Positions 54,258 to 63,890 are shown, counted from the first letter of the stretch. The stretch is 64,000 nucleotides of DNA from a virus (IMGVR_UViG_3300029705_000062); one strand, 5' to 3'. Made by a program: numbers and translations. The notes: generated by a model not told the origin, from the letters alone.

Positions 54258-56156
54258 ATGGCTATATTGAATGGTAAATATAGAGTTAAAAATTCTAAAA
54301 ATGATTATGATATAGTGTACTTAGAAACAGGTGCAAATCAAGTTAAGTTTAATGATGGAAAAACATTTCAAGAAAAATTAGAAGATGGAACTTTAAAAGG
54401 AGATAAAGGTGACAAGGGTGATACTGGTATAACTCCAACTATAAAAGCAGGTAGTGTAACAACAGGAAGTTCAGGATCAAGTGCAACAGTAACCGCAAGT
54501 ACAGTAGGAACTACAACTACATTTAATTTTGTAATTCCACAAGGTATTAAAGGAGATACTGGTGCAAAAGGAGATAAAGGAGACCAAGGTATACAAGGTG
54601 TTAAAGGAGATAAGGGTGATAAGGGAGAAGATGGTTTAACTACTTCTATTACTGTTGGCTCAACAAAGTATACACACTCTAATGGTAATATAACTATTCC
54701 TGCTTATCCTACATTATCTTCTTTAGGAGCTTCTGCATCTTCTCATACTCACAGTCAATATGAAAATCAAAATGCATTTTCTAGTGTGAAAGTTGGTTCA
54801 ACAACAGTGACTGCTGATAGTCCTACAGATACTATAGAATTAAAAGCAGGTTCAAATATAACTTTAACTCCTGATAGTACAAATGATGCTATAACAATAG
54901 CTGTTAATGGTATGACTGTTACAAGTTCTGAAAAATCTGATTGGAATGCTAAGGAAACTACATCAGGTTCTCAAGCTAAGGCAGACAAAGCTAAGTCAGA
55001 TGCAATATCTTCTGCTAAATCTTATACAGATGAAAAGGTTGCACAATTTATTGATTCTGCTCCTGAGACATTAGATACACTAAATGAACTTGCTAAGGCT
55101 CTTGGCAATGACCCTAATTTTGCTACTACAGTAGCAACTCAAATAGGTACTAAAGCAGATACTTCTTATGTAAATACTGAATTAGATAAAAAAGCAAATG
55201 CTTCACATGGAACTCATGTAACTTACTCAACAACTGCTCCTTTATCTAATGGAACAGCATCTGTAGGTACATCAGGAAGTGTTTCTAGAGGAGACCATGT
55301 TCATCCACTTCAAACAACGGTATCAGGAAATGCAGGTACAGCTACTACATTACAAACTGCAAGAACTATTAATGGAACAAGTTTCAACGGTAGTGCTAAC
55401 ATTACTACTGCAAACTGGGGAACTGCTAGAAATATAACAATAGGAAATGCAACAAAATCTGTAAATGGTTCAGGAAATGTTTCTTGGACATTGGCTGAAA
55501 TAGGAGCTTCATCTACATCAGTGGCTACTACTTCTGCAAATGGTTTAATGTCCGCACAGGATAAAACTAAGTTAGATTCAATAGCTACAAATTCTCAATT
55601 TAAAATAACAGTTGCATCAAGCTCTTGGACTACTGACGGTTCACTTTACAGTACAACAATCAAACACAACTTAAATAAAGAGGTTCTTTATGTAAGTGCT
55701 TATGATTCAAGTTCAAAGAAGAGTATATTTGTTTCTTATACAATAACAGATAACAACTCTTTAAAAGTTACAGTTGAAAGTGCTATAAATGCGGTTATAA
55801 CTATTGTTGTTGAAGGTGGATTGGTAAATCTTGCAGGAGGAGGAATAAGTGACTCTACTGTTTCTGCTACTAGCACTTGGTCAAGTACAAAAATAGAAAG
55901 TGCAATGAGTGGACTTGTTAAAGACGGTACAACTAGCCAAAAAGGTATCGTACAATTATCTTCGGCAATTAATAGTACAAGTACAACATTAGGTGCAACT
56001 GCAAGTGCTGTAAAACTTGCTTATGATTTAGCTAATACAGCTAACAATTTAGCTAATACAGTTAATAATTCAACTAATAATCAACGTACAATAACAATGT
56101 CTACTGCTGACCCTTCAGGAGGTAAGGACGGAGATATATGGTTTAAATATGAATAA
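54258..56156 (+). CDS. Tail fibre protein with collagen-like G-X-Y runs, 632 aa
   Basis: GDKGDKGDTG and GDTGAKGDKGDQGIQGVKGDKGDKGEDG. DSAPETLDTLNELAKAL motif. S/T-rich C-terminus. Confidence 0.65.
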   Translation: MAILNGKYRVKNSKNDYDIVYLETGANQVKFNDGKTFQEKLEDGTLKGDKGDKGDTGITPTIKAGSVTTGSSGSSATVTASTVGTTTTFNFVIPQGIKGDTGAKGDKGDQGIQGVKGDKGDKGEDGLTTSITVGSTKYTHSNGNITIPAYPTLSSLGASASSHTHSQYENQNAFSSVKVGSTTVTADSPTDTIELKAGSNITLTPDSTNDAITIAVNGMTVTSSEKSDWNAKETTSGSQAKADKAKSDAISSAKSYTDEKVAQFIDSAPETLDTLNELAKALGNDPNFATTVATQIGTKADTSYVNTELDKKANASHGTHVTYSTTAPLSNGTASVGTSGSVSRGDHVHPLQTTVSGNAGTATTLQTARTINGTSFNGSANITTANWGTARNITIGNATKSVNGSGNVSWTLAEIGASSTSVATTSANGLMSAQDKTKLDSIATNSQFKITVASSSWTTDGSLYSTTIKHNLNKEVLYVSAYDSSSKKSIFVSYTITDNNSLKVTVESAINAVITIVVEGGLVNLAGGGISDSTVSATSTWSSTKIESAMSGLVKDGTTSQKGIVQLSSAINSTSTTLGATASAVKLAYDLANTANNLANTVNNSTNNQRTITMSTADPSGGKDGDIWFKYE

Positions 56157-56167
56157 AGAGGTGAAAT

Positions 56168-57073
56168 ATGAGCATAAGTGCAACATTTACAAATAATCCT
56201 ATATATAACTTTGACTATACTGGCACACAGCAAGAGTTTATTGCTCCTTATAATGGAACATATCAATTAGAGGTATGGGGTGCTGAAGGTGGTAACAGAA
56301 GTGGTACTGCTTCAGGTGGAAAAGGAGGATATTCTTGTGGTCAAATTAATCTTAAAAAAGGAGATATTCTTTATATCTATGTAGGTGGAAATGGTAATGA
56401 CGGTAAAGGTTATAATGGAGGAGGTCAGGTTGGCTCTACTGCTGTATATGGCGGTGGTGGCACTGACATAAGAAAAGACGGTACTGAATTAGCCAACCGT
56501 ATAATCGTAGCAGGGGGAGGAGGCTCTGTTGGAGCTTCATATAATGCAGGTGCTTACGGTGGAGGTACTACAGGTGGTTCTGCTTCTGATGGATATGGTA
56601 CTGGTGGTGGCGGTGCAACTCAGACCGCAGGTGGGTCAGGTTATTCAGTTTATCCAGCTTCCATAGGTTCTCTTGGAAAAGGTGGAAATGGTTATTATGC
56701 TTCATCTGGTTACGGAGGAGCAGGAGGAGGGGGCTACTACGGTGGTGGTGGTGTCTATCCTGATTCATCAGTAGATGATGATAGAGGTGGAGGAGGAGGT
56801 TCAGGGTATATTAATACTTCTGTACTTTCGGTTGCTTCAACTAAAGCTGGTAATACATCTATCCCAACTACAGGTACAAATCTAACTGGCTCAACAATAG
56901 GAAGGTCAGGTCATGGTAGTTGTAGAATAATATTAGTAACAAAGGAAACAACTCCTGTATATATAAATGTAAATGGAACATGGAAAGAAGCTGTTACATA
57001 TATAAATGTAAATGGAACATGGAAAGAAACAACTCCACAAATAAATGTAAATGAAACATGGAAAAATTTATAA
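56168..57073 (+). CDS. Glycine-rich domain protein with a triple C-terminal YINVNGTWKE repeat
   Basis: EVWGAEGG...GGKGGY......GD.LYIYVGG.G...GGGGTDIR......RIIVAGGGG is the pattern of the 'glycine-rich domain' family. The 39-nt repeat occurs 3 times at 56963-57067. Confidence 0.6.
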   Translation: MSISATFTNNPIYNFDYTGTQQEFIAPYNGTYQLEVWGAEGGNRSGTASGGKGGYSCGQINLKKGDILYIYVGGNGNDGKGYNGGGQVGSTAVYGGGGTDIRKDGTELANRIIVAGGGGSVGASYNAGAYGGGTTGGSASDGYGTGGGGATQTAGGSGYSVYPASIGSLGKGGNGYYASSGYGGAGGGGYYGGGGVYPDSSVDDDRGGGGGSGYINTSVLSVASTKAGNTSIPTTGTNLTGSTIGRSGHGSCRIILVTKETTPVYINVNGTWKEAVTYINVNGTWKETTPQINVNETWKNL

Positions 57074-57163: not shown

Positions 57164-57337
57164 TTGTTATCTGAAACTATGATGACTAAATTAAAAAATG
57201 TTCCCAGTAATCTTAATTCTAAAATAACAGAATTAAATAACAAATTAGCAACTTTAGAAAGCAAAGCAAAATCTATTTCCCATACAGAAGAGGAGGTAAT
57301 TAATAATGCTAGGGTCTACGATTCAAGAAAAAGTTAA
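57164..57337 (+). CDS. Possible small protein (57 aa, TTG start), below the ORF-track cutoff
   Basis: AGGAGGG RBS 8 nt upstream. TKLKNVPSNLNSKITELNNKLATL is paralogous to the N-terminus of the next ORF. Confidence 0.4.
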   Translation: MLSETMMTKLKNVPSNLNSKITELNNKLATLESKAKSISHTEEEVINNARVYDSRKS

Positions 57338-57536
57338 GAATTTGCCTACTAATACAAACAGCACTATAAGTAGTATGGAAACAAGAATAAACACTATATC
57401 CACAGATGTTGATAATGGCAAAAACGCAATAGCTTCTGCTATCACTTCAAAGGGAACAAGTGCTAGTGGTTCAGAAACTTTTGACGAATTAGCTACTAAA
57501 ATAAGAAACATGCAAAGTGGTGCTGTTTTTTCGTAA
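57306..57536 (+). CDS. Small protein, 76 aa
   Basis: GAGGAGG RBS. N-terminus EKVKNLPTNTNSTISSMETRINTI is paralogous to 57164..57337. Overlaps that ORF by 32 nt. Confidence 0.5.
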   Translation: MLGSTIQEKVKNLPTNTNSTISSMETRINTISTDVDNGKNAIASAITSKGTSASGSETFDELATKIRNMQSGAVFS

Positions 57537-57568
57537 AAATAAAGTAAATATAGAAAGGGTGTTTGTAT

Positions 57569-58315
57569 ATGGCAACAATAGATTATAATGCTCAAAATTT
57601 TATAGATATGAAGCAACGTATAAAAAATGAAGTTAATAGAAGACAGTATACAGGCTCGATAACTTCATATGGAACAGCAACTTATGACTATACAGTAACT
57701 CCTGTTAAAGGGAATAAAGTTCTTGTTGAACATTATAATAAAATAGCTACTCCATTAAGAGCTATTAATCCTGATGGAATAATTGAATCAGCAAAAGTAG
57801 GTGATGATGTAAGTACTGTTACTACACCAACAGAATTAGATGCAAGAATAACTTTATATGCTTCTAAATCACTTACAGCTTCATCTTCTAATACAGGTTG
57901 TGCTACAAGTTGCACAGGACTGTGTTCAACTGCTTGTACAGGAACTTGCTCAGGCGGATGTAGTGGGAGCTGTACTGGAACTTGTAGTGGAACTTGTTCA
58001 GGAGGATGTACTGGATGTAGTGGATGTGGAGGTTCTTGTTCATATAATTGTTCAGGAACTTGCTCAGGAAGTTGTTCAGATGCATGTACTGGGTGCAGTG
58101 GGTGTAGTGGAACTTGTTCAGGAACATGTACAGGATGTTCAGGTGGGTGTACTGGTCAATGTACTGGTGGATGTGGAGGTTCTTGTTCAGGAGCTTGTTG
58201 GGGTTCTTGTGGCGGAGCTTGTGCAAATGGATGTTCAACAGGATGTGGTAACTCTTGTTCAGGAGCTTGTTGGGGTTCAGGTGGAAAAGGAGTTACACAA
58301 TTTAAAGTAAAATAA
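57569..58315 (+). CDS. Cysteine-repeat protein: about 110-aa N-terminal domain plus about 125-aa C(S/T)G(S/T)-type repeat with 33 Cys
   Basis: ATG 57569 after a GAAAGGGTG RBS. The C-terminal half is almost only C, G, S, T and A with CX3C (some CX2C) spacing. Confidence 0.7.
   Translation: MATIDYNAQNFIDMKQRIKNEVNRRQYTGSITSYGTATYDYTVTPVKGNKVLVEHYNKIATPLRAINPDGIIESAKVGDDVSTVTTPTELDARITLYASKSLTASSSNTGCATSCTGLCSTACTGTCSGGCSGSCTGTCSGTCSGGCTGCSGCGGSCSYNCSGTCSGSCSDACTGCSGCSGTCSGTCTGCSGGCTGQCTGGCGGSCSGACWGSCGGACANGCSTGCGNSCSGACWGSGGKGVTQFKVK
57899..58270 (+). repeat. 12-nt-periodic coding repeat (TGY-WSN-GGN-WSN) encoding the CX3C array
   Basis: 33 Cys codons in about 124 codons. The low-complexity sequence leaves extra frames open (shadow ORFs 57858..58310 + and 57903..58238 -). 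Confidence 0.85.
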
Positions 58316-58326
58316 GGGGGTATAAT

Positions 58327-58881
58327 ATGAAAGATGATTTTAATAGATATTTAAAATCTGCAAATCACAGAGTTGATATTGTAAGATATCTTCGAGGTGG
58401 AGAAAAAGATGAAACAGTGTTAAGAGAAATATTAGAAAATTTAAAAGCTTCGTCTATAACTGAGTATGAAGTTCATACATTTATAACTGAGTTAATAACA
58501 GTTCATTTAGAAGATGTTAATGTAGATACACTTTATATGTTCTTTAGAATATTAAATGAAGTATTTGGATATGAACTAGATGCTGATAAATATGTTTATA
58601 TGTCTATGTTATATATAGAATATCCTAAAATACCTAAGAAATTAAGTAAGAGTGATATAGATTCATTGTCAGATATTTTTAATGATGGTGATTTTATAAA
58701 TTCTTGTAAACCAAGATTATTAATGTCTTTTTCTTCTCTTTATTTAGAAATTCTTCTAAATAGTGGAAAAGATTATGAAGAAATGGCAAAGATAAGTGCA
58801 ATTTTAAGAAATGCTCATACAGTTATGATGAATGAAGAAAAAAAATTAGTTAAAGAACTATCAGAAAATTTACAAAAGTAA
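58327..58881 (+). CDS. Hypothetical helical protein, 184 aa (cassette member)
   Basis: Starts 11 nt after the Cys-repeat gene stop, with a AAGGGGG RBS. Confidence 0.6.
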   Translation: MKDDFNRYLKSANHRVDIVRYLRGGEKDETVLREILENLKASSITEYEVHTFITELITVHLEDVNVDTLYMFFRILNEVFGYELDADKYVYMSMLYIEYPKIPKKLSKSDIDSLSDIFNDGDFINSCKPRLLMSFSSLYLEILLNSGKDYEEMAKISAILRNAHTVMMNEEKKLVKELSENLQK

Positions 58882-58901
58882 AAAAATGTGAGAGGTTGAA
58901 A

Positions 58902-59234
58902 ATGAAAAATAAAATATATATAAAAATAGATGAAATCACTTGTGGATATATTCAATATCTTAATCACAGGGTTAATGGATATAAAGAAGTATTAACAGAG
59001 GTTATATCTAATAAAAGATTTGGTTTAAAAATAGATGAAAAACTATTTGAAATGTACAATGACCTTTATGTAAAGTATTATACTGAATTTCAGACAACAA
59101 AGGATGTTTTAATAGAGGAATTATTCCCTGTTAAAAACAGAAAAAAAGATACTATGTATATGTATACTATAGATTATATAAGCAATGAGCTAATAATAGA
59201 GGAAGTGAGGGATTTACATGAGACTAAAAGGTAA
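58902..59234 (+). CDS. Hypothetical protein, about 110 aa (cassette member)
   Basis: GAGAGG RBS. Its stop overlaps the start of the radical SAM gene by 17 nt. Confidence 0.55.
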   Translation: MKNKIYIKIDEITCGYIQYLNHRVNGYKEVLTEVISNKRFGLKIDEKLFEMYNDLYVKYYTEFQTTKDVLIEELFPVKNRKKDTMYMYTIDYISNELIIEEVRDLHETKR

Positions 59235-60564
59235 AACTACTTCATTTCAAGACTCTATATTTGCTATAGAAGTTGCAAAAAATATTTTCTTAGGTGAAAA
59301 AGCAGATGATAGAACAGTAAGAGTAGTTACATTTCAATTAACAGAAAGATGTAACTTAGCTTGTACTTACTGTTATCAAATTGCAAAGACACCTAAAGTA
59401 ATGGATTTTGAAACAGCAAAAAGATTTATAGATATGTTAGTTAAAGATAGTTATGACAAAGATTCTGTTGTATCTATCTTTAATACTAATGGTTTAATAA
59501 TTGAATTTATAGGCGGAGAGCCACTTTTAGAAATTGAGTTAATGGATAAAATAACAGATTATTTTAGAAAAGTTTTAATAGAAAAAAATCATCCTTGGCT
59601 TATCAATTTTAGAATAAGTATGATTTCTAACGGAGTTCTTTATTTTAAACCTGAGCTCCAAAATTACATCAAGAAAAATAGGTCTATATTGAGCTTTTCA
59701 ATATCATTAGACGGTTGTAAAGAGTTACATGACAAATGTAGAATTTTCCATAACGGAGAAGGTTCTTATGATATAGTAGAAGAAGCATGTTTACACTATA
59801 TGAATAACTATGACCATGAAATGACTACAAAGATGACATTTGCTCCTGAGAATGTTGATTATGCATATGATGCAATAGTAAATCTTATTAATTTAGGGTA
59901 TAAGACGATATATTGTAACCCAGTATATGAGAATGTATGGAGTGATGAACACCCAAAAGTATATTATAACAATTTAAAAAAGGTTGCAGATTTTCTAATA
60001 GAAAATAAACTTTATGAAACAGTTGAGATAAGTGCTTTTGATAAATCTCTCTTTGGGAAAATAGACCTTAAAGCTGATAACAGAAATTACTGTGGTTCAA
60101 CTGGTAGTATGATATCTCTTGACTGTGAAGGAAACATATATCCATGTATAAGGTTTATGAAATCTTCATTAGGAGACGGAGTAAAACCTTTTACAATAGG
60201 AAGTATAGATAAAGGTATAGGAAAGTTGCCTAAGTATAGAAATAATATAAATATATTAGACAGCATTACACTAACATCTCAGTCAACAGATGAATGTATT
60301 AATTGTAATATAAATAGTGGTTGTGGTTGGTGTACTGCTTACAACTATCAAGAAACAGGCTCTCCAAATAAAAGAGTTGTAAGTATATGTGGTCTACATA
60401 AAGCTAGAGCATTAGCAAATGTTTATTATTGGAATAGTATCTATAATAAAGAAGGGGTTAATGATGTTTTCAAAATAAATATGAATAAAGATGACATTGT
60501 AAATATAGTTGGAGAAACAGAAGCTGAAAATTTAATAAATTGCCAAGAACTCTTGCGACTTTAG
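59218..60564 (+). CDS. Radical SAM enzyme with a SPASM-type C-terminal Cys clusters (anSME / peptide-maturase-like)
   Basis: CNLACTYC (Cys45/49/52, CX3CX2C). GGEPLL. C-terminal CGSTGSMISLDCEGNIYPC and CINCNINSGCGWC...ICGLHKA. Confidence 0.85.
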   Translation: MRLKGKTTSFQDSIFAIEVAKNIFLGEKADDRTVRVVTFQLTERCNLACTYCYQIAKTPKVMDFETAKRFIDMLVKDSYDKDSVVSIFNTNGLIIEFIGGEPLLEIELMDKITDYFRKVLIEKNHPWLINFRISMISNGVLYFKPELQNYIKKNRSILSFSISLDGCKELHDKCRIFHNGEGSYDIVEEACLHYMNNYDHEMTTKMTFAPENVDYAYDAIVNLINLGYKTIYCNPVYENVWSDEHPKVYYNNLKKVADFLIENKLYETVEISAFDKSLFGKIDLKADNRNYCGSTGSMISLDCEGNIYPCIRFMKSSLGDGVKPFTIGSIDKGIGKLPKYRNNINILDSITLTSQSTDECINCNINSGCGWCTAYNYQETGSPNKRVVSICGLHKARALANVYYWNSIYNKEGVNDVFKINMNKDDIVNIVGETEAENLINCQELLRL

Positions 60565-60708
60565 TCGAGGGTAGTTCACTAAAACTTATGGGGAATATAT
60601 AAAATAAATTTTGAAAATTAAGTTGATTATATCAATTTTAAGATAAAATGGAAAGGACTGATATATCTTTTATATCAGTCCTTAAATTATATGATTTAAG
60701 GGGGTATT

Positions 60709-61434
60709 ATGAGCTTAGTAATTTTAGATAGCGGACATAATGAATATGTTAAAGGAAAAAGCAATGGGGATTTTAAAGAATGGGACTTTAACAATAAAAT
60801 GCAATGTAAAATTAAGAAAAGACTTTTAGATCATGGAATAGAAGTTTACTTAACTAATCCAAACCCTGAGAAAAAAGATGAAATAGGTTTAAGTAAAAGA
60901 GCAACCATTTCAAATGATTATTGGATAAAGAAAGGTAAGCCGAAGGCTGTATTTATATCTTTGCATGGAAATGCTTATAGTGATGCTAGTGTTAGAGGAA
61001 CAGAAACATTCCATGCTAATAATGCTTCGTCTACATCAAAAACATTTGCAAAAACATTAAATGATGAAGTTGTAAAAACAATGAAATCATTAGATAAAAA
61101 TGCAAAGGATAGAGGAGTTAAATCACAAGATTTCACTGTAATATATAAAACTTCTATGCCTTCAGTGTTAGTTGAGTATGGATTTTACAGTAACCCTGAT
61201 GATTTAAAGATATTAAAAAATAACCAAGATGACCTAACAGAAGCTACAGTTAAAGCCATATGCAAACACTTTAATATAACATATAAAGCTGTACAAAAGG
61301 AATCTACAACTTCAAGCACAGGAACACAGTTGTATGCAGTATGTGTAGGAGCTTATGGATATGACCAAGCTAAAAAAATGCAACAAGAAATGATATCAAA
61401 AGGATATACTAGCACTTATATAATCCCTAGATAG
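60709..61434 (+). CDS. N-acetylmuramoyl-L-alanine amidase endolysin (Amidase_3-like) with a SPOR-like C-terminus
   Basis: ILDSGHN...E.DFN...FISLHGNA...GTETF...DRGVK...F.VI....PSVLVEYGF.SNP.D. C-terminal YAVCVGAYGYDQAKKMQQEMISKGY. Confidence 0.85.
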   Translation: MSLVILDSGHNEYVKGKSNGDFKEWDFNNKMQCKIKKRLLDHGIEVYLTNPNPEKKDEIGLSKRATISNDYWIKKGKPKAVFISLHGNAYSDASVRGTETFHANNASSTSKTFAKTLNDEVVKTMKSLDKNAKDRGVKSQDFTVIYKTSMPSVLVEYGFYSNPDDLKILKNNQDDLTEATVKAICKHFNITYKAVQKESTTSSTGTQLYAVCVGAYGYDQAKKMQQEMISKGYTSTYIIPR

Positions 61435-61527: not shown

Positions 61528-61556
61528 TTGACAATTGTCGATAATTAATGTATATT
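61528..61556 (+). promoter_or_regulatory. Sigma-A-type promoter with an overlapping palindromic operator
   Basis: TTGACA, 17-nt spacer, TATATT. The perfect palindrome GACAATTGTC overlaps the -35 element. Confidence 0.65.
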
Positions 61557-61748: not shown

Positions 61749-61786
61749 GGACTTATGTTTAACTGTTTAAGCATAAGTCCTTTTTA
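61749..61786 (+). terminator. Intrinsic terminator in the leader, 16 nt upstream of the rep gene (possible attenuator)
   Basis: GGACTTATG ... CATAAGTCC followed by TTTTT. Confidence 0.65.
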
Positions 61787-61801: not shown

Positions 61802-63100
61802 GTGAGTAGTGTGCAACTAGAAGAATATTGTGAGCATTTATATGATGATAGTACAGAAGGCTATTTGCATATTGCTCACTTAGACAAAAATAGACGAATA
61901 AAAATATATAATACAAATAATGCAAATATAAGGGAAATAGTTGAGGAAGTTGGACAAGAAGATGTCTTTATAACTCCTAATACAACTTTTATACCTGTAA
62001 GAAAAGCACAAAATATAAGACAATTTAGAGCATTATTTATAGATTTAGATATACAAAAATTAGGTTACCATAAATCGGAAACTGTTTACATGGTTTGGGA
62101 GCTTTATTATCAAGATAAGATTCCTCAACCTACAATGGTAGTTGACAGTGGAAGAGGAGTGCATATTTATTGGAGAATAGAAAATGCACCGATACAAGCA
62201 TGGAGTACTTGGCAAGAGTTAGAAGATTATCTATATTATCAATTAAGACATCTAGGAGCTGATAAACAAGCTACAGATAGTGTAAGAGTACTTAGATTAC
62301 CTAGTTCAATTAACTCTAGGAATGGATCAGAGTGTAAGATACTTTATATAGATAATGAAACAACATACTCTATGTATGATTTAAGACAAACTTATTTAAA
62401 CTATAAACCTAAAACAACCCAAATAAAAATGCTAGAGGTTAAAAGTACACCAACAGCAAAAGTAATATCTAATAAATTCTTTACTTCTTATAGTTTACAT
62501 TTAGCTAGAATAGAAGATATAGAAACTTTATGTAAATTAAGAAACTATAATGTAAAAGGATATAGAAACTTCATACTTCACTGTTATGCATATTGGCAAG
62601 GGGTTACTATTAGAGATGAAGAATCACTAAGAGAAGAAGTATATTCCTTAAATAATGCCTTTAAAGAGCCTATGAAGGCTACTGAGGTAGATGCAATACT
62701 AAGATGCATACCAAAAGCTATAGATAAGTTTATAGCATATGAACAAGGTGTAAGAAGTGGTGAAGTTAAAAGAGTTACTAAGGGTATGCGAGATAAGGGA
62801 GGTTACTGGTATAAGAATGAAACCTTAATTGAAAGGCTAGATATAACAGAAGCTGAACAAAAGCATATGAAGACCATTATAGGTACAGAAGAAAAGTATA
62901 CTAGAAGAAGAGATAAGGATAGAGAATATCAAAGAGCTAAGAGAAGAAATGAAAATGGTTTAACTAAGAAACAACAGGAAAAGCAAGATATGATAAAAGA
63001 ATTAGATTTATTGTTAAAGCAAGGGTTAAAAAATCAAGAGATATCAGAAAAGCTAAATATTTCTGTAAGACAAGTTCAAAGATTAAAAAAGGAACTTTAA
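61802..63100 (+). CDS. Prim-Pol (AEP-type) replication protein with a C-terminal HTH
   Basis: FIDLD (motif I), SGRGVHIYW (motif II), DSVRVLRLPSSIN (motif III). C-terminal NQEISEKLNISVRQVQRLKK is an HTH. GTG start; 61811 is an alternative. Confidence 0.7.
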   Translation: MSSVQLEEYCEHLYDDSTEGYLHIAHLDKNRRIKIYNTNNANIREIVEEVGQEDVFITPNTTFIPVRKAQNIRQFRALFIDLDIQKLGYHKSETVYMVWELYYQDKIPQPTMVVDSGRGVHIYWRIENAPIQAWSTWQELEDYLYYQLRHLGADKQATDSVRVLRLPSSINSRNGSECKILYIDNETTYSMYDLRQTYLNYKPKTTQIKMLEVKSTPTAKVISNKFFTSYSLHLARIEDIETLCKLRNYNVKGYRNFILHCYAYWQGVTIRDEESLREEVYSLNNAFKEPMKATEVDAILRCIPKAIDKFIAYEQGVRSGEVKRVTKGMRDKGGYWYKNETLIERLDITEAEQKHMKTIIGTEEKYTRRRDKDREYQRAKRRNENGLTKKQQEKQDMIKELDLLLKQGLKNQEISEKLNISVRQVQRLKKEL

Positions 63101-63366: not shown

Positions 63367-63615
63367 ATGGATATGGTTAGTTTTGTACCTGAATCATTAT
63401 TTATATTAGTTGTAGCAATAAATATATTAGGAACATTCTTAAAGAAGTTAGAACAAATAAAGGATAACTTCATACCTATCATATTATTAGGATTTTCTAT
63501 TATATTTGCTATGTTATTAGAAGGGATGAGTCCTACAAGTTTCTTACAAGGTATAATAACTTGGGGAGTTGCTGTAGGTACACATCAAACAGTTCATCAA
63601 ATAAAAAAAGGATGA
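63367..63615 (+). CDS. Holin (phage_holin_1-like, multi-TM)
   Basis: 82 aa with 2-3 hydrophobic helices and a charged C-terminus HQIKKG. Confidence 0.65.
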   Translation: MDMVSFVPESLFILVVAINILGTFLKKLEQIKDNFIPIILLGFSIIFAMLLEGMSPTSFLQGIITWGVAVGTHQTVHQIKKG

Positions 63616-63629
63616 TAGGGGGATAGGCA

Positions 63630-63890
63630 ATGCAAGAGTTAATTAAACTTATATTTACATCTATTTTCTCAGAGTATGGTGTAATAGGTGCATGTTTTGT
63701 TGTATTGCTACTTTGGACTATGAAGGAGAATAAAGACAGAGAAGGTAAGTATCAAGAAACAATAGCTAAAAATCAAGAAATAATTCTTGAACAGGCAAGA
63801 AACTTTGACATTGTAAAAGAGATTAGAGAAGATGTATCAGATTTAAAAATAGCTATAACAACTGCAAAAGCTAAAAAAGAAAGTCATTAA
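63630..63890 (+). CDS. BhlA/UviB-family holin-like protein
   Basis: N-terminal TM helix YGVIGACFVVLLLW, then MKENKDREGKYQETIAKNQEII, typical of BhlA/UviB. Confidence 0.65.
   Translation: MQELIKLIFTSIFSEYGVIGACFVVLLLWTMKENKDREGKYQETIAKNQEIILEQARNFDIVKEIREDVSDLKIAITTAKAKKESH

Follow-up and report, generated by a model that had tools for sequence, protein, structure and literature searches.

The viral sequence IMGVR_UViG_3300029705_000062 raises the question of why a phage would carry a radical S-adenosylmethionine (rSAM) enzyme and a cysteine-saturated protein in one block between its fibre-type genes and its endolysin gene. The window (the whole stretch of DNA analysed, 64,000 nucleotides (nt), given as one strand) contains at positions 57164-60564 a tightly packed block of + strand genes, which encode a Cys-repeat protein of 248 amino acid residues (aa) (57569-58315), a 184-aa orphan protein (58327-58881), a 110-aa accessory protein (58902-59234) and a 448-aa radical SAM/SPASM maturase (59218-60564). 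All of these open reading frames (ORFs) are present, as described in a first-pass annotation of the window, which had also considered the gene combination to be undescribed. This last point does not stand, since the combination of an rSAM enzyme, a CXXX target and a small accessory protein is that of the curated, in-silico-defined CXXX-repeat system TIGR04114-04119 (TIGR04114/04117 target, TIGR04115 rSAM, TIGR04119 second maturase and TIGR04116 small protein). On sequence grounds, the cassette is a distinct phage-specific version of this known, experimentally uncharacterised system. We propose, with an even chance of being right, that it is a phage-adapted minimal CXXX-repeat rSAM system whose product is an rSAM-cross-linked, probably thioether-linked, fibre shaft.

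The enzyme scores 402.5 bits against the NCBIfam model TIGR04115 (cutoff 350), titled 'radical SAM peptide maturase, CXXX-repeat target family', and the match spans model positions 2-359 of 359; some phage relatives fall under this cutoff, such as that of locus L001 (300.6). All lower-ranked families are under their cutoffs: PapB (NF047865, 187.7 versus 340), the SCIFF maturase (121 versus 425), QhpD (119 versus 453), HxsB (91 versus 370) and anSME (71 versus 349). An anSME, QhpD or cofactor-family identity was ruled out by these scores, and no SCIFF peptide, QhpC or sulfatase partner was found among the cassette proteins scanned with Pfam and NCBIfam. Pfam recognises Radical_SAM and Fer4_12 in the enzyme. 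The CX3CX2C motif reported by the first-pass annotation is CNLACTYC, at residues 45-52 (59350-59373), and the SPASM-type C-terminal cysteines were also recovered, as Cys 292, 310, 360, 363, 369, 372 and 391 (60091-60390) are invariant in a four-sequence rSAM alignment. The nearest solved structure is that of the thioether synthase CteB (5WGG, E 5e-21), and the alignment covers CteB from residue 94 onward, which leaves the phage enzyme with no counterpart of the CteB N-terminal region. A recognition element (RRE) of the PqqD-like winged-helix type (beta3-alpha3) was seen neither at the N-terminus of the rSAM nor in the 110-aa protein. In a collection of 50,697 phage records, the closest rSAMs lie on unannotated gut-virome contigs, with up to 40% identity. 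A known defence system was also considered and rejected: PADLOC gave nothing specific for the rSAM and nothing for the other cassette proteins; its weak pVip matches (E 4e-12) cover just residues 36-169, the core of the rSAM, with a generic similarity to viperins.

Related loci were collected by a search with an alignment of four rSAM sequences, a single-sequence rSAM search of viral contigs having returned nothing. They comprise 80 viral loci from IMG/VR and 80 from GTDB, which are the best 80 of at least 207 and the best 80 of at least 468 confirmed matches, respectively. ORFs were called mechanically and neighbours were classified with jackhmmer; IMG/VR contigs may include bacterial DNA. 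A CXXX-rich ORF was found within 4 kb of the rSAM gene in 148 of the 162 loci, across phages, Bacteroidota and Firmicutes, and several of the loci without one are at contig ends or in frameshifted assemblies. A TIGR04116-like gene is present in 150 of the 162. The first-pass annotation had suggested that the enzyme and the Cys-repeat protein form a functional pair, and had named this neighbourhood as the place where the idea could fail; rSAM homologues usually keep a Cys-repeat neighbour, and together with the TIGR04115 score this bears the pairing out.

The loci show three main gene arrangements. Type A (52 loci, Bacteroidota) has one or more Cys peptides followed by an rSAM gene of about 400 codons, TIGR04119 and TIGR04116. 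Type B (15 loci, cellular Firmicutes) has an rSAM of about 720 aa fused to a complete TIGR04119, followed by TIGR04116 and Cys peptides of 50-100 aa, and often then a protein of about 590 aa. Type C (75 loci) is the phage and prophage type, with an N-terminal domain joined to CXXX repeats, an optional variable gene for about 180 aa, a TIGR04116-like gene and an rSAM of about 440 aa; it contains 66 viral contigs, eight prophages in Clostridia-type genomes and the window, and all prophage-bearing genomes surveyed are Clostridia-type Bacillota. The window shares with the curated system an rSAM above the TIGR04115 cutoff, the C-[ST]-G-x unit and a homologous accessory protein of about 100 aa. However, TIGR04119 was absent from all 75 phage-type loci (52 of the cellular loci have it as a separate gene and 15 as a fusion), and its lone match in the window is the SPASM domain of the rSAM itself. 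The fusions suggest that the two maturases probably work as one unit, a unit that the phage systems do without entirely. The gene order also differs, being target, variable gene when present, accessory and rSAM in phages and target, rSAM, TIGR04119 and TIGR04116 in Bacteroidota. A midpoint-rooted neighbor-joining tree (no support values) splits the enzymes cleanly into a cellular clade, with types A and B, and a separate phage clade. Phage targets have a folded N-terminal domain of about 110 aa, whereas cellular targets have a twin-arginine translocation (Tat) signal or a short leader, and the phage cassettes lie in tail-fibre modules, unlike the cellular system.

The canonical example of type A is locus L002, with a Tat-signal Cys-repeat protein, an rSAM of 630 bits, TIGR04119 (235 bits) and TIGR04116 (105 bits). 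Its target (L002:2222-2746) shows a Tat-type SRREFFK followed by a possible lipobox, ILGC, and in this one type A locus that was examined the target may be a lipoprotein exported through Tat, as opposed to a diffusible peptide. Among the Firmicutes, the enzymes of about 710-735 aa in L097-L133 (for example L097:6947-9082) consist of a TIGR04115-type rSAM fused to a complete TIGR04119, a model titled 'CXXX repeat peptide maturase'.

Two further features were observed in phage-clade rSAM genes. Five of them encode 746-799 aa (L077:5909-8299, L079:5807-8206, L083:6542-8863, L078:5972-8212 and L084:6044-8314) and, read by eye, show a putative intein within CX3CX2C, where the extein C-x3-C-x2 is followed by an insert that begins C-[LP]-x-G-[DT] and ends VHN, and then by C-Y-[EQ]. 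The L078 insert has a different beginning and the same end, and the final cluster Cys would be the +1 residue. Blocks similar to LAGLIDADG are found in the L077 and L079 inserts, and the others are mini-intein-like. The second feature is a conserved N-terminal extension of about 200 aa in the rSAMs of L070 (6446-8257), L078, L083 and L084, which may be a fused substrate-recognition module. No separate TIGR04116-like gene was found near L078, L083 or L084, and L070 has a match. The contigs of L070, L083 and L084 measure 246-289 kb where listed, and that of L078 61 kb; the Cys-rich neighbours of the extended enzymes are proteins of 551-891 aa with large extra domains.

The Cys-repeat protein of the window has 33 Cys residues, all within residues 111-234, at spacings of 4 (27 times) or 3 (five times). 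This array of CXXX and CXX units (57899-58270) matches phrog_6085 and is the presumed substrate region and fibre shaft. Its 124 aa contain 35 Gly, 33 Cys (27%), 24 Ser and 17 Thr, and the consensus unit, C-[ST]-G-[GST], which agrees with the C-(S/T)-G-(S/T)-like array noticed in the first-pass annotation, is the same in all three system types. In all three, Cys is the single invariant residue of the unit and Asp and Glu are rare. The repeat DNA shows a 12-nt periodicity that is only degenerate, and the array is therefore old and diverged, with no recent expansion. The curated repeat models stay below threshold on this protein (TIGR04114, 12.7 versus 20; TIGR04117, 14.4 versus 50), and the homologue in L001 reaches 21.3 on the TIGR04114/04117 scan. 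The repeat composition also has by-products in other frames, namely ORFs at 57858-58310 (+) and 57903-58238 (-) of 150 and 111 aa, which are liable to be miscalled as genes; in the GC-rich relatives L008, L013 and L038 such ORFs artificially lengthen the 5' end of the accessory gene.

The repeats are preceded by an N-terminal domain of about 110 aa (CysN, 57569-57898), predicted by AlphaFold2 (AF2) to be helical (helices at residues 8-24, 53-66 and 87-99) with a predicted local distance difference test (pLDDT) score of about 90 over residues 10-100, so that the folded appearance noted at first pass is borne out by the model. The domain is kept in 75 of the 162 loci. It has 95 database homologues, all unnamed or 'hypothetical' and many with a precomputed PF27846 match. 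Foldseek found no PDB match for its fold, a PDB profile search returned nothing below E 0.38, and its sole matches in BFVD are uncharacterised phage homologues. No signal peptide was found on the phage targets, and no protease or exporter in the window cassette.

Several features of the target family point to a modular protein of variable length. The number of Cys residues in phage-type proteins ranges between 17 and 95 (median 35, n=66), compared with medians of 14 and 10 in the cellular types, and this spread resembles, by analogy, the length variation known from collagen-like fibre repeats and other elements that serve as spacers or shafts. In L022, L024, L028, L030 and L033, the N-terminal domain, a repeat of about 240 aa and a beta-rich C-terminal domain of about 180 aa form a single protein of 538-543 aa; the C-terminal domain of L028 and L022 has no match in Pfam, PHROGs or PDB. 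L049 (3713-6142) and L079 encode proteins of 809-816 aa with an N-terminal Cys repeat followed by two glycine-rich (PF12810) domains, the domain that is encoded directly upstream of the window cassette. The repeat of L049 begins at residue 6, so a leader is not needed, and the N-terminal domain, which both fusions lack, is dispensable for the co-occurrence of repeat and enzyme. Homologues of the glycine-rich-domain protein lie near the cassette in 12 loci, and the fusions suggest that this protein is part of the same structure as the Cys-repeat one. In L064 (8236-9288) and L095 (8930-9928), where the rSAM gene precedes the target, the Cys repeats come first and the non-repeat domain is C-terminal; in L064 this region is similar to the N-terminal domain. 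We favour a structural protein over a leader-core precursor, on the basis of the domain fold, the fusions, the repeat variation and the genomic context.

The 110-aa protein had been listed among two proteins of unknown type. Its start is most likely ATG 58902, the one supported by independent gene calls and by a homologue of 110 aa with 92% identity; a start at the TTG further upstream, at 58896, would lengthen the protein to 112 aa. The curated TIGR04116 model, whose name is 'CXXX repeat peptide modification system protein', gave no match to it at E <= 10. However, jackhmmer searches started from this protein and from the TIGR04116 protein of L002 share 149 ORFs (of 157 and 150, respectively), and hhalign aligned 64 phage-type with 54 Bacteroidota sequences over their full length (97.4%, E 1.2e-11, 86 columns), including a C-terminal motif, W/Y-x-[IL]-D-F, common to both sets. 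By these profile comparisons the protein is a remote TIGR04116 member, beyond the reach of the curated model. AF2 predicted (pLDDT 90) a strand, a long helical hairpin and a beta-hairpin, with no PDB analogue at E <= 0.001 in Foldseek. An RRE identity was rejected, as the order beta, alpha-hairpin, beta-beta is not PqqD-like. The TIGR04116-like protein possibly presents the substrate through the edge of its beta-sheet. The stop of its ORF overlaps the rSAM start by 17 nt, as noted at first pass, and the interval between the two lies between -70 and +14 nt in all 64 phage-type pairs, a spacing which suggests that accessory and rSAM are translationally coupled. In L094 (6244-6903) the TIGR04116-like domain is tandemly duplicated within one 219-aa protein.

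The 184-aa protein, the second of those listed as unknown, is still an orphan. It occupies a hypervariable slot between the target and accessory genes and had no match in Pfam, NCBIfam (E <= 10), PHROGs or PADLOC, and phmmer against 1.84 billion representative proteins returned two matches, relatives of 79% and 30%. No homologue was detected by jackhmmer or phmmer in 160 related loci, even in the closest. Other phages have in this slot proteins of about 170-200 aa that look mostly helical and are related neither to the 184-aa protein nor to each other; hhalign of the 184-aa protein gave at most 4.6% against these positional analogues and 0.1% against TIGR04119.

The tail context is observed both in the window and in the related loci. 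In the window, the cassette follows two fibre-type genes, a Phage_fiber_2/collagen fibre gene (54258-56156, by Pfam) and a gene for a 301-aa glycine-rich-domain protein (56168-57073, +; PF12810 ALK_LTK_GRD, E 5e-33). The block has no internal consensus + strand promoter or terminator, according to a scan of the window, and therefore appears to be co-transcribed with the fibre genes. Upstream neighbours match tail or virion-structural PHROGs, of different families, in eight of ten diverse loci. The clearest arrangement is that of a Neglectibacter timonensis SN17 prophage (L089), where a baseplate hub, a wedge, a baseplate protein, a wedge subunit and a 156-aa minor-tail-like ORF are followed by the Cys-repeat protein, the accessory and the rSAM, and then by intervening ORFs, a tail fibre and, after about 1.7 kb, the endolysin. 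SN17 is a cultured strain; its prophage lies at about 929.8-945.2 kb of NZ_LT160640.1 and encodes a Cys-repeat protein of 335 aa. In P2/Mu-like baseplate modules, the fibre gene usually comes after the wedge genes and is followed by that of its assembly factor. By analogy, the Cys-repeat and maturase pair of L089 would be in about the position of a fibre gene and its assembly factor.

Similar designs are known in phage structures. Collagen-like Gly-X-Y fibre shafts share with the Cys-repeat protein an N-terminal anchor, a low-complexity repeat of variable length and a distal domain. Covalent stabilisation of virions is known from the isopeptide chainmail of the HK97 capsid, and covalent links, in the form of a disulfide network, also stabilise the tail of phage Milano (PMC10811340). 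However, the Gly-X-Y shafts and the Milano tail fold or oxidise without a dedicated enzyme, whereas the phage cassette encodes a dedicated radical enzyme beside a fibre gene.

How the cassette could work can be outlined as follows. Late in infection, a fibre-like protein would be made that consists of the helical N-terminal domain of about 110 aa, the 124-aa C-[ST]-G-[GST] array and a short C-terminal tail, and the translationally coupled accessory and rSAM pair would act on its Cys repeats in the anoxic cytoplasm of the host. The prophage-bearing hosts, being Clostridia-type Bacillota, are presumed anaerobes, in which rSAM enzymes can function and disulfides would not be dependable. By analogy with PapB, CteB and QhpD, the enzyme would most likely abstract a hydrogen atom and form a bond between the Cys sulfur and a carbon in a neighbouring residue, and thioethers are proposed because PapB, the SCIFF maturase CteB and QhpD are the next-best families and include the nearest structure. 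The most economical model would have one thioether per repeat, in which the Cys sulfur is bonded to a carbon atom in a Ser, Thr or Gly close by. The resulting ladder of small thioether rings would give a stiff, redox-insensitive and protease-resistant shaft, held to the baseplate or the fibre apparatus by the N-terminal domain. What follows the repeats is a variable, lineage-specific module, the 184-aa orphan here and a fused beta-rich domain in some relatives. More generally, in Clostridia phages a Cys-repeat shaft of the tail or baseplate may be stapled in the cytoplasm before assembly by a phage rSAM acting as an enzymatic fibre chaperone, a tentative proposal to which we give somewhat less than an even chance. 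For the cross-linked virion rod of the first-pass annotation, contextual support was thus found in the repeat variation, the fusions, the tail neighbours and the L089 prophage, while the chemistry and the incorporation into the virion are what we infer.

Three characterised enzymes bear on the chemistry. PapB forms six Cys-Asp thioethers in the tandem CXXXD units of its substrate, one per unit, while an auxiliary cluster binds the substrate Cys (PMC12373016). CteB forms a Cys-Thr link from S to C-gamma, and QhpD introduces Cys thioether cross-links in a protein subunit (PMC11002830). Both the PapB/PapA (freyrasin) and CteB/SCIFF pairs resemble the phage pair as a SPASM rSAM with a Cys-rich substrate. 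In contrast to them, the phage enzyme is far under the respective family cutoffs and has no N-terminal RRE domain, the repeats are essentially without Asp or Glu acceptors, the substrate is a multidomain protein of 248 aa (up to 891 aa in relatives) instead of a leader-core peptide, and the cassette has no protease or exporter. The QhpD/QhpC pair is a precedent for a structural protein as substrate, as it involves a protein subunit and not a secreted peptide (PMC11002830); it differs in its score (119 bits versus 453), its dehydrogenase genes, which the cassette lacks, and its compact subunit in place of a repeat array.

Several results weigh against the cross-linked fibre shaft. The repeat of the window contains 1 Asp and 0 Glu in 124 aa, and this near-absence of acidic residues in the repeats means that PapB-type Cys-Asp chemistry is not simply transferable. 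The AF2 model of the repeat region has a pLDDT below 50, with no confident structure, and the predicted fold of the accessory, not being RRE-like, leaves substrate recognition without an explanation. The N-terminal domain was not found in any isolated phage among the 50,697 records. The surveyed loci were chosen by rSAM similarity, as the best matches of two collections, and are a non-random sample. No experimental study of any TIGR04115-family member was found in the literature searched. Finally, the position that the cassette has in the window, just ahead of the lysis genes, is one where morons are classically found as well.

This position leads to the strongest of the other explanations, that the cassette is moron cargo which encodes a very large peptide-like effector of the ribosomally synthesised and post-translationally modified type, matured by the rSAM and either released at lysis or acting in or on the lysogen. 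Once released, the product could serve as a bacteriocin, an adhesin or a signal; in the lysogen, it could for example take part in superinfection exclusion, comparable to the rSAM-matured HxsA of HXS. The cellular relatives do look secreted or envelope-associated, with 50-100-aa precursors beside the proteins of about 590 aa in Firmicutes and the Tat-type signal and possible lipobox of L002, and in the window the endolysin gene is the next one after the cassette. The HXS system provides a parallel, as it was also defined in silico, consists of an effector with His-Xaa-Ser repeats (HxsA), the rSAMs HxsB and HxsC and the small protein HxsD, and proved to be an antiphage defence system (PMC13128918). 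Its design is that of the cassette, in that a protein which carries both repeats and an additional domain is encoded with one or more rSAM maturases and a small accessory (PMC13128918); however, HXS is host-encoded, its effector is periplasmic with a signal peptide and its rSAMs are of another subfamily, while the cassette is phage-encoded and lies among tail genes. A cargo role also fits poorly with phage targets that lack a signal peptide, a leader-cleavage motif and an accompanying protease or exporter, with a cassette that has no promoter or terminator of its own, and with PADLOC matches that reflect nothing beyond a generic resemblance of the rSAM core to viperins. The number of repeats varies strongly, the targets are fused to fibre-type domains, and elsewhere the cassette lies between baseplate and fibre genes, not at a module boundary. 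We consider this explanation plausible but less likely than the fibre shaft, and it is the most serious of the alternatives.

A scaffold for metal or iron-sulfur clusters, similar to metallothionein, is less probable still. Here the rSAM would carry out Cys oxidation, another modification or metal loading. The extreme thiol density of the repeat (27% Cys), the missing Asp and Glu acceptors, the failure of AF2 to fold the repeat region without ligands and the Tat-type signal of L002, a route typical of cofactor-bearing or pre-folded proteins, would all agree with such a scaffold. However, the closest characterised relatives of the enzyme are without exception thioether synthases, in which an auxiliary cluster holds the substrate Cys (PMC12373016), the anSME-type similarity is weak (71 bits versus 349) and the cassette has no metal-handling genes. 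Coincidental adjacency, with another substrate for the rSAM and a low-complexity artefact for the Cys-repeat ORF, could appeal to the long spurious ORFs that the repeat DNA yields in other frames (57858-58310 on the + strand and 57903-58238 on the - strand), but it is effectively refuted by a Cys frame that continues from a conserved, confidently folded domain, by the linkage in 148 of 162 loci and by a curated family definition that names the target type.

If the cross-linked fibre shaft is correct, it would represent the first case of a virion structural protein modified after translation by a phage-encoded radical-SAM enzyme, and the shaft would be a protein-scale 'poly-thioether' material taking the place of disulfides where conditions are always reducing. 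TIGR04115, an rSAM family defined by in-silico models alone, would also gain a biological role and a substrate amenable to study; neither CXXX-repeat/TIGR04115 systems nor rSAM maturation of structural proteins in phages was the subject of any paper in the literature searched. The variant is common, with rSAM relatives on at least 207 IMG/VR contigs, many of them from gut metagenomes, and it may affect the stability or host range of gut phages. Dozens of enzymatic cross-links per repeat protein would make an attractive scaffold for protein materials or peptide stapling, a use to which PapB has already been put (PMC12373016).

The same cassette occurs beyond the window. The exact rSAM protein was found on at least 23 metagenome contigs, the longest of 126 kb, and independent gene calls on those contigs give proteins of 248, 184, 110 and 448 aa, the same as in the window. 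The portal protein is 37.5% identical to that of Clostridioides difficile phages of the phiCD211 type, of about 131 kb, which suggests that the window derives from a large uncultured phage of a low-GC (about 29%) host; a Clostridia-type host is our guess from this portal similarity. Each cassette gene is preceded by a purine-rich ribosome-binding site similar to Shine-Dalgarno, and the intergenic gaps are 32 nt (from the 57306 ORF to the Cys-repeat gene), 11 nt and 20 nt.

Two small + strand ORFs lie just upstream, outside the conserved cassette: a coiled-coil-like one of 57 aa (57164-57337) and one of 76 aa (57306-57536) with a tail-fibre-type motif (phrog_26419 'tail fiber protein', E 1.2e-11). 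They share 32 nt, in frames offset by +1, and since they match each other in jackhmmer they are paralogous, as the first-pass annotation had stated. Both lengths and the 32-nt overlap are kept in L003 and L004, where the Cys protein is about 63-72% identical, and the motif of the 76-aa ORF recurs within fibre proteins of 401-571 aa in L009, L012 and L019. These ORFs could encode adaptors that go with the fibre, could be what is left of a fibre gene, or could yield one product joined by frameshifting.

Downstream of the rSAM gene, a hairpin with a 13-bp stem (60653-60683) found by sequence scan is possibly a late-transcript end or processing site, and the structural block ends at the Amidase_3 endolysin gene (60709-61434, +; Pfam E 1.5e-36). 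The lysis region is split: the endolysin is separated from two holin-like membrane proteins (63367-63615, which is Phage_holin_5_2 by precomputed Pfam, and 63630-63890) by a gene for a 432-aa protein with a C-terminal helix-turn-helix (61802-63100). This region also shows a strong promoter-like site at 61528-61556 and a terminator-like hairpin at 61749-61780.

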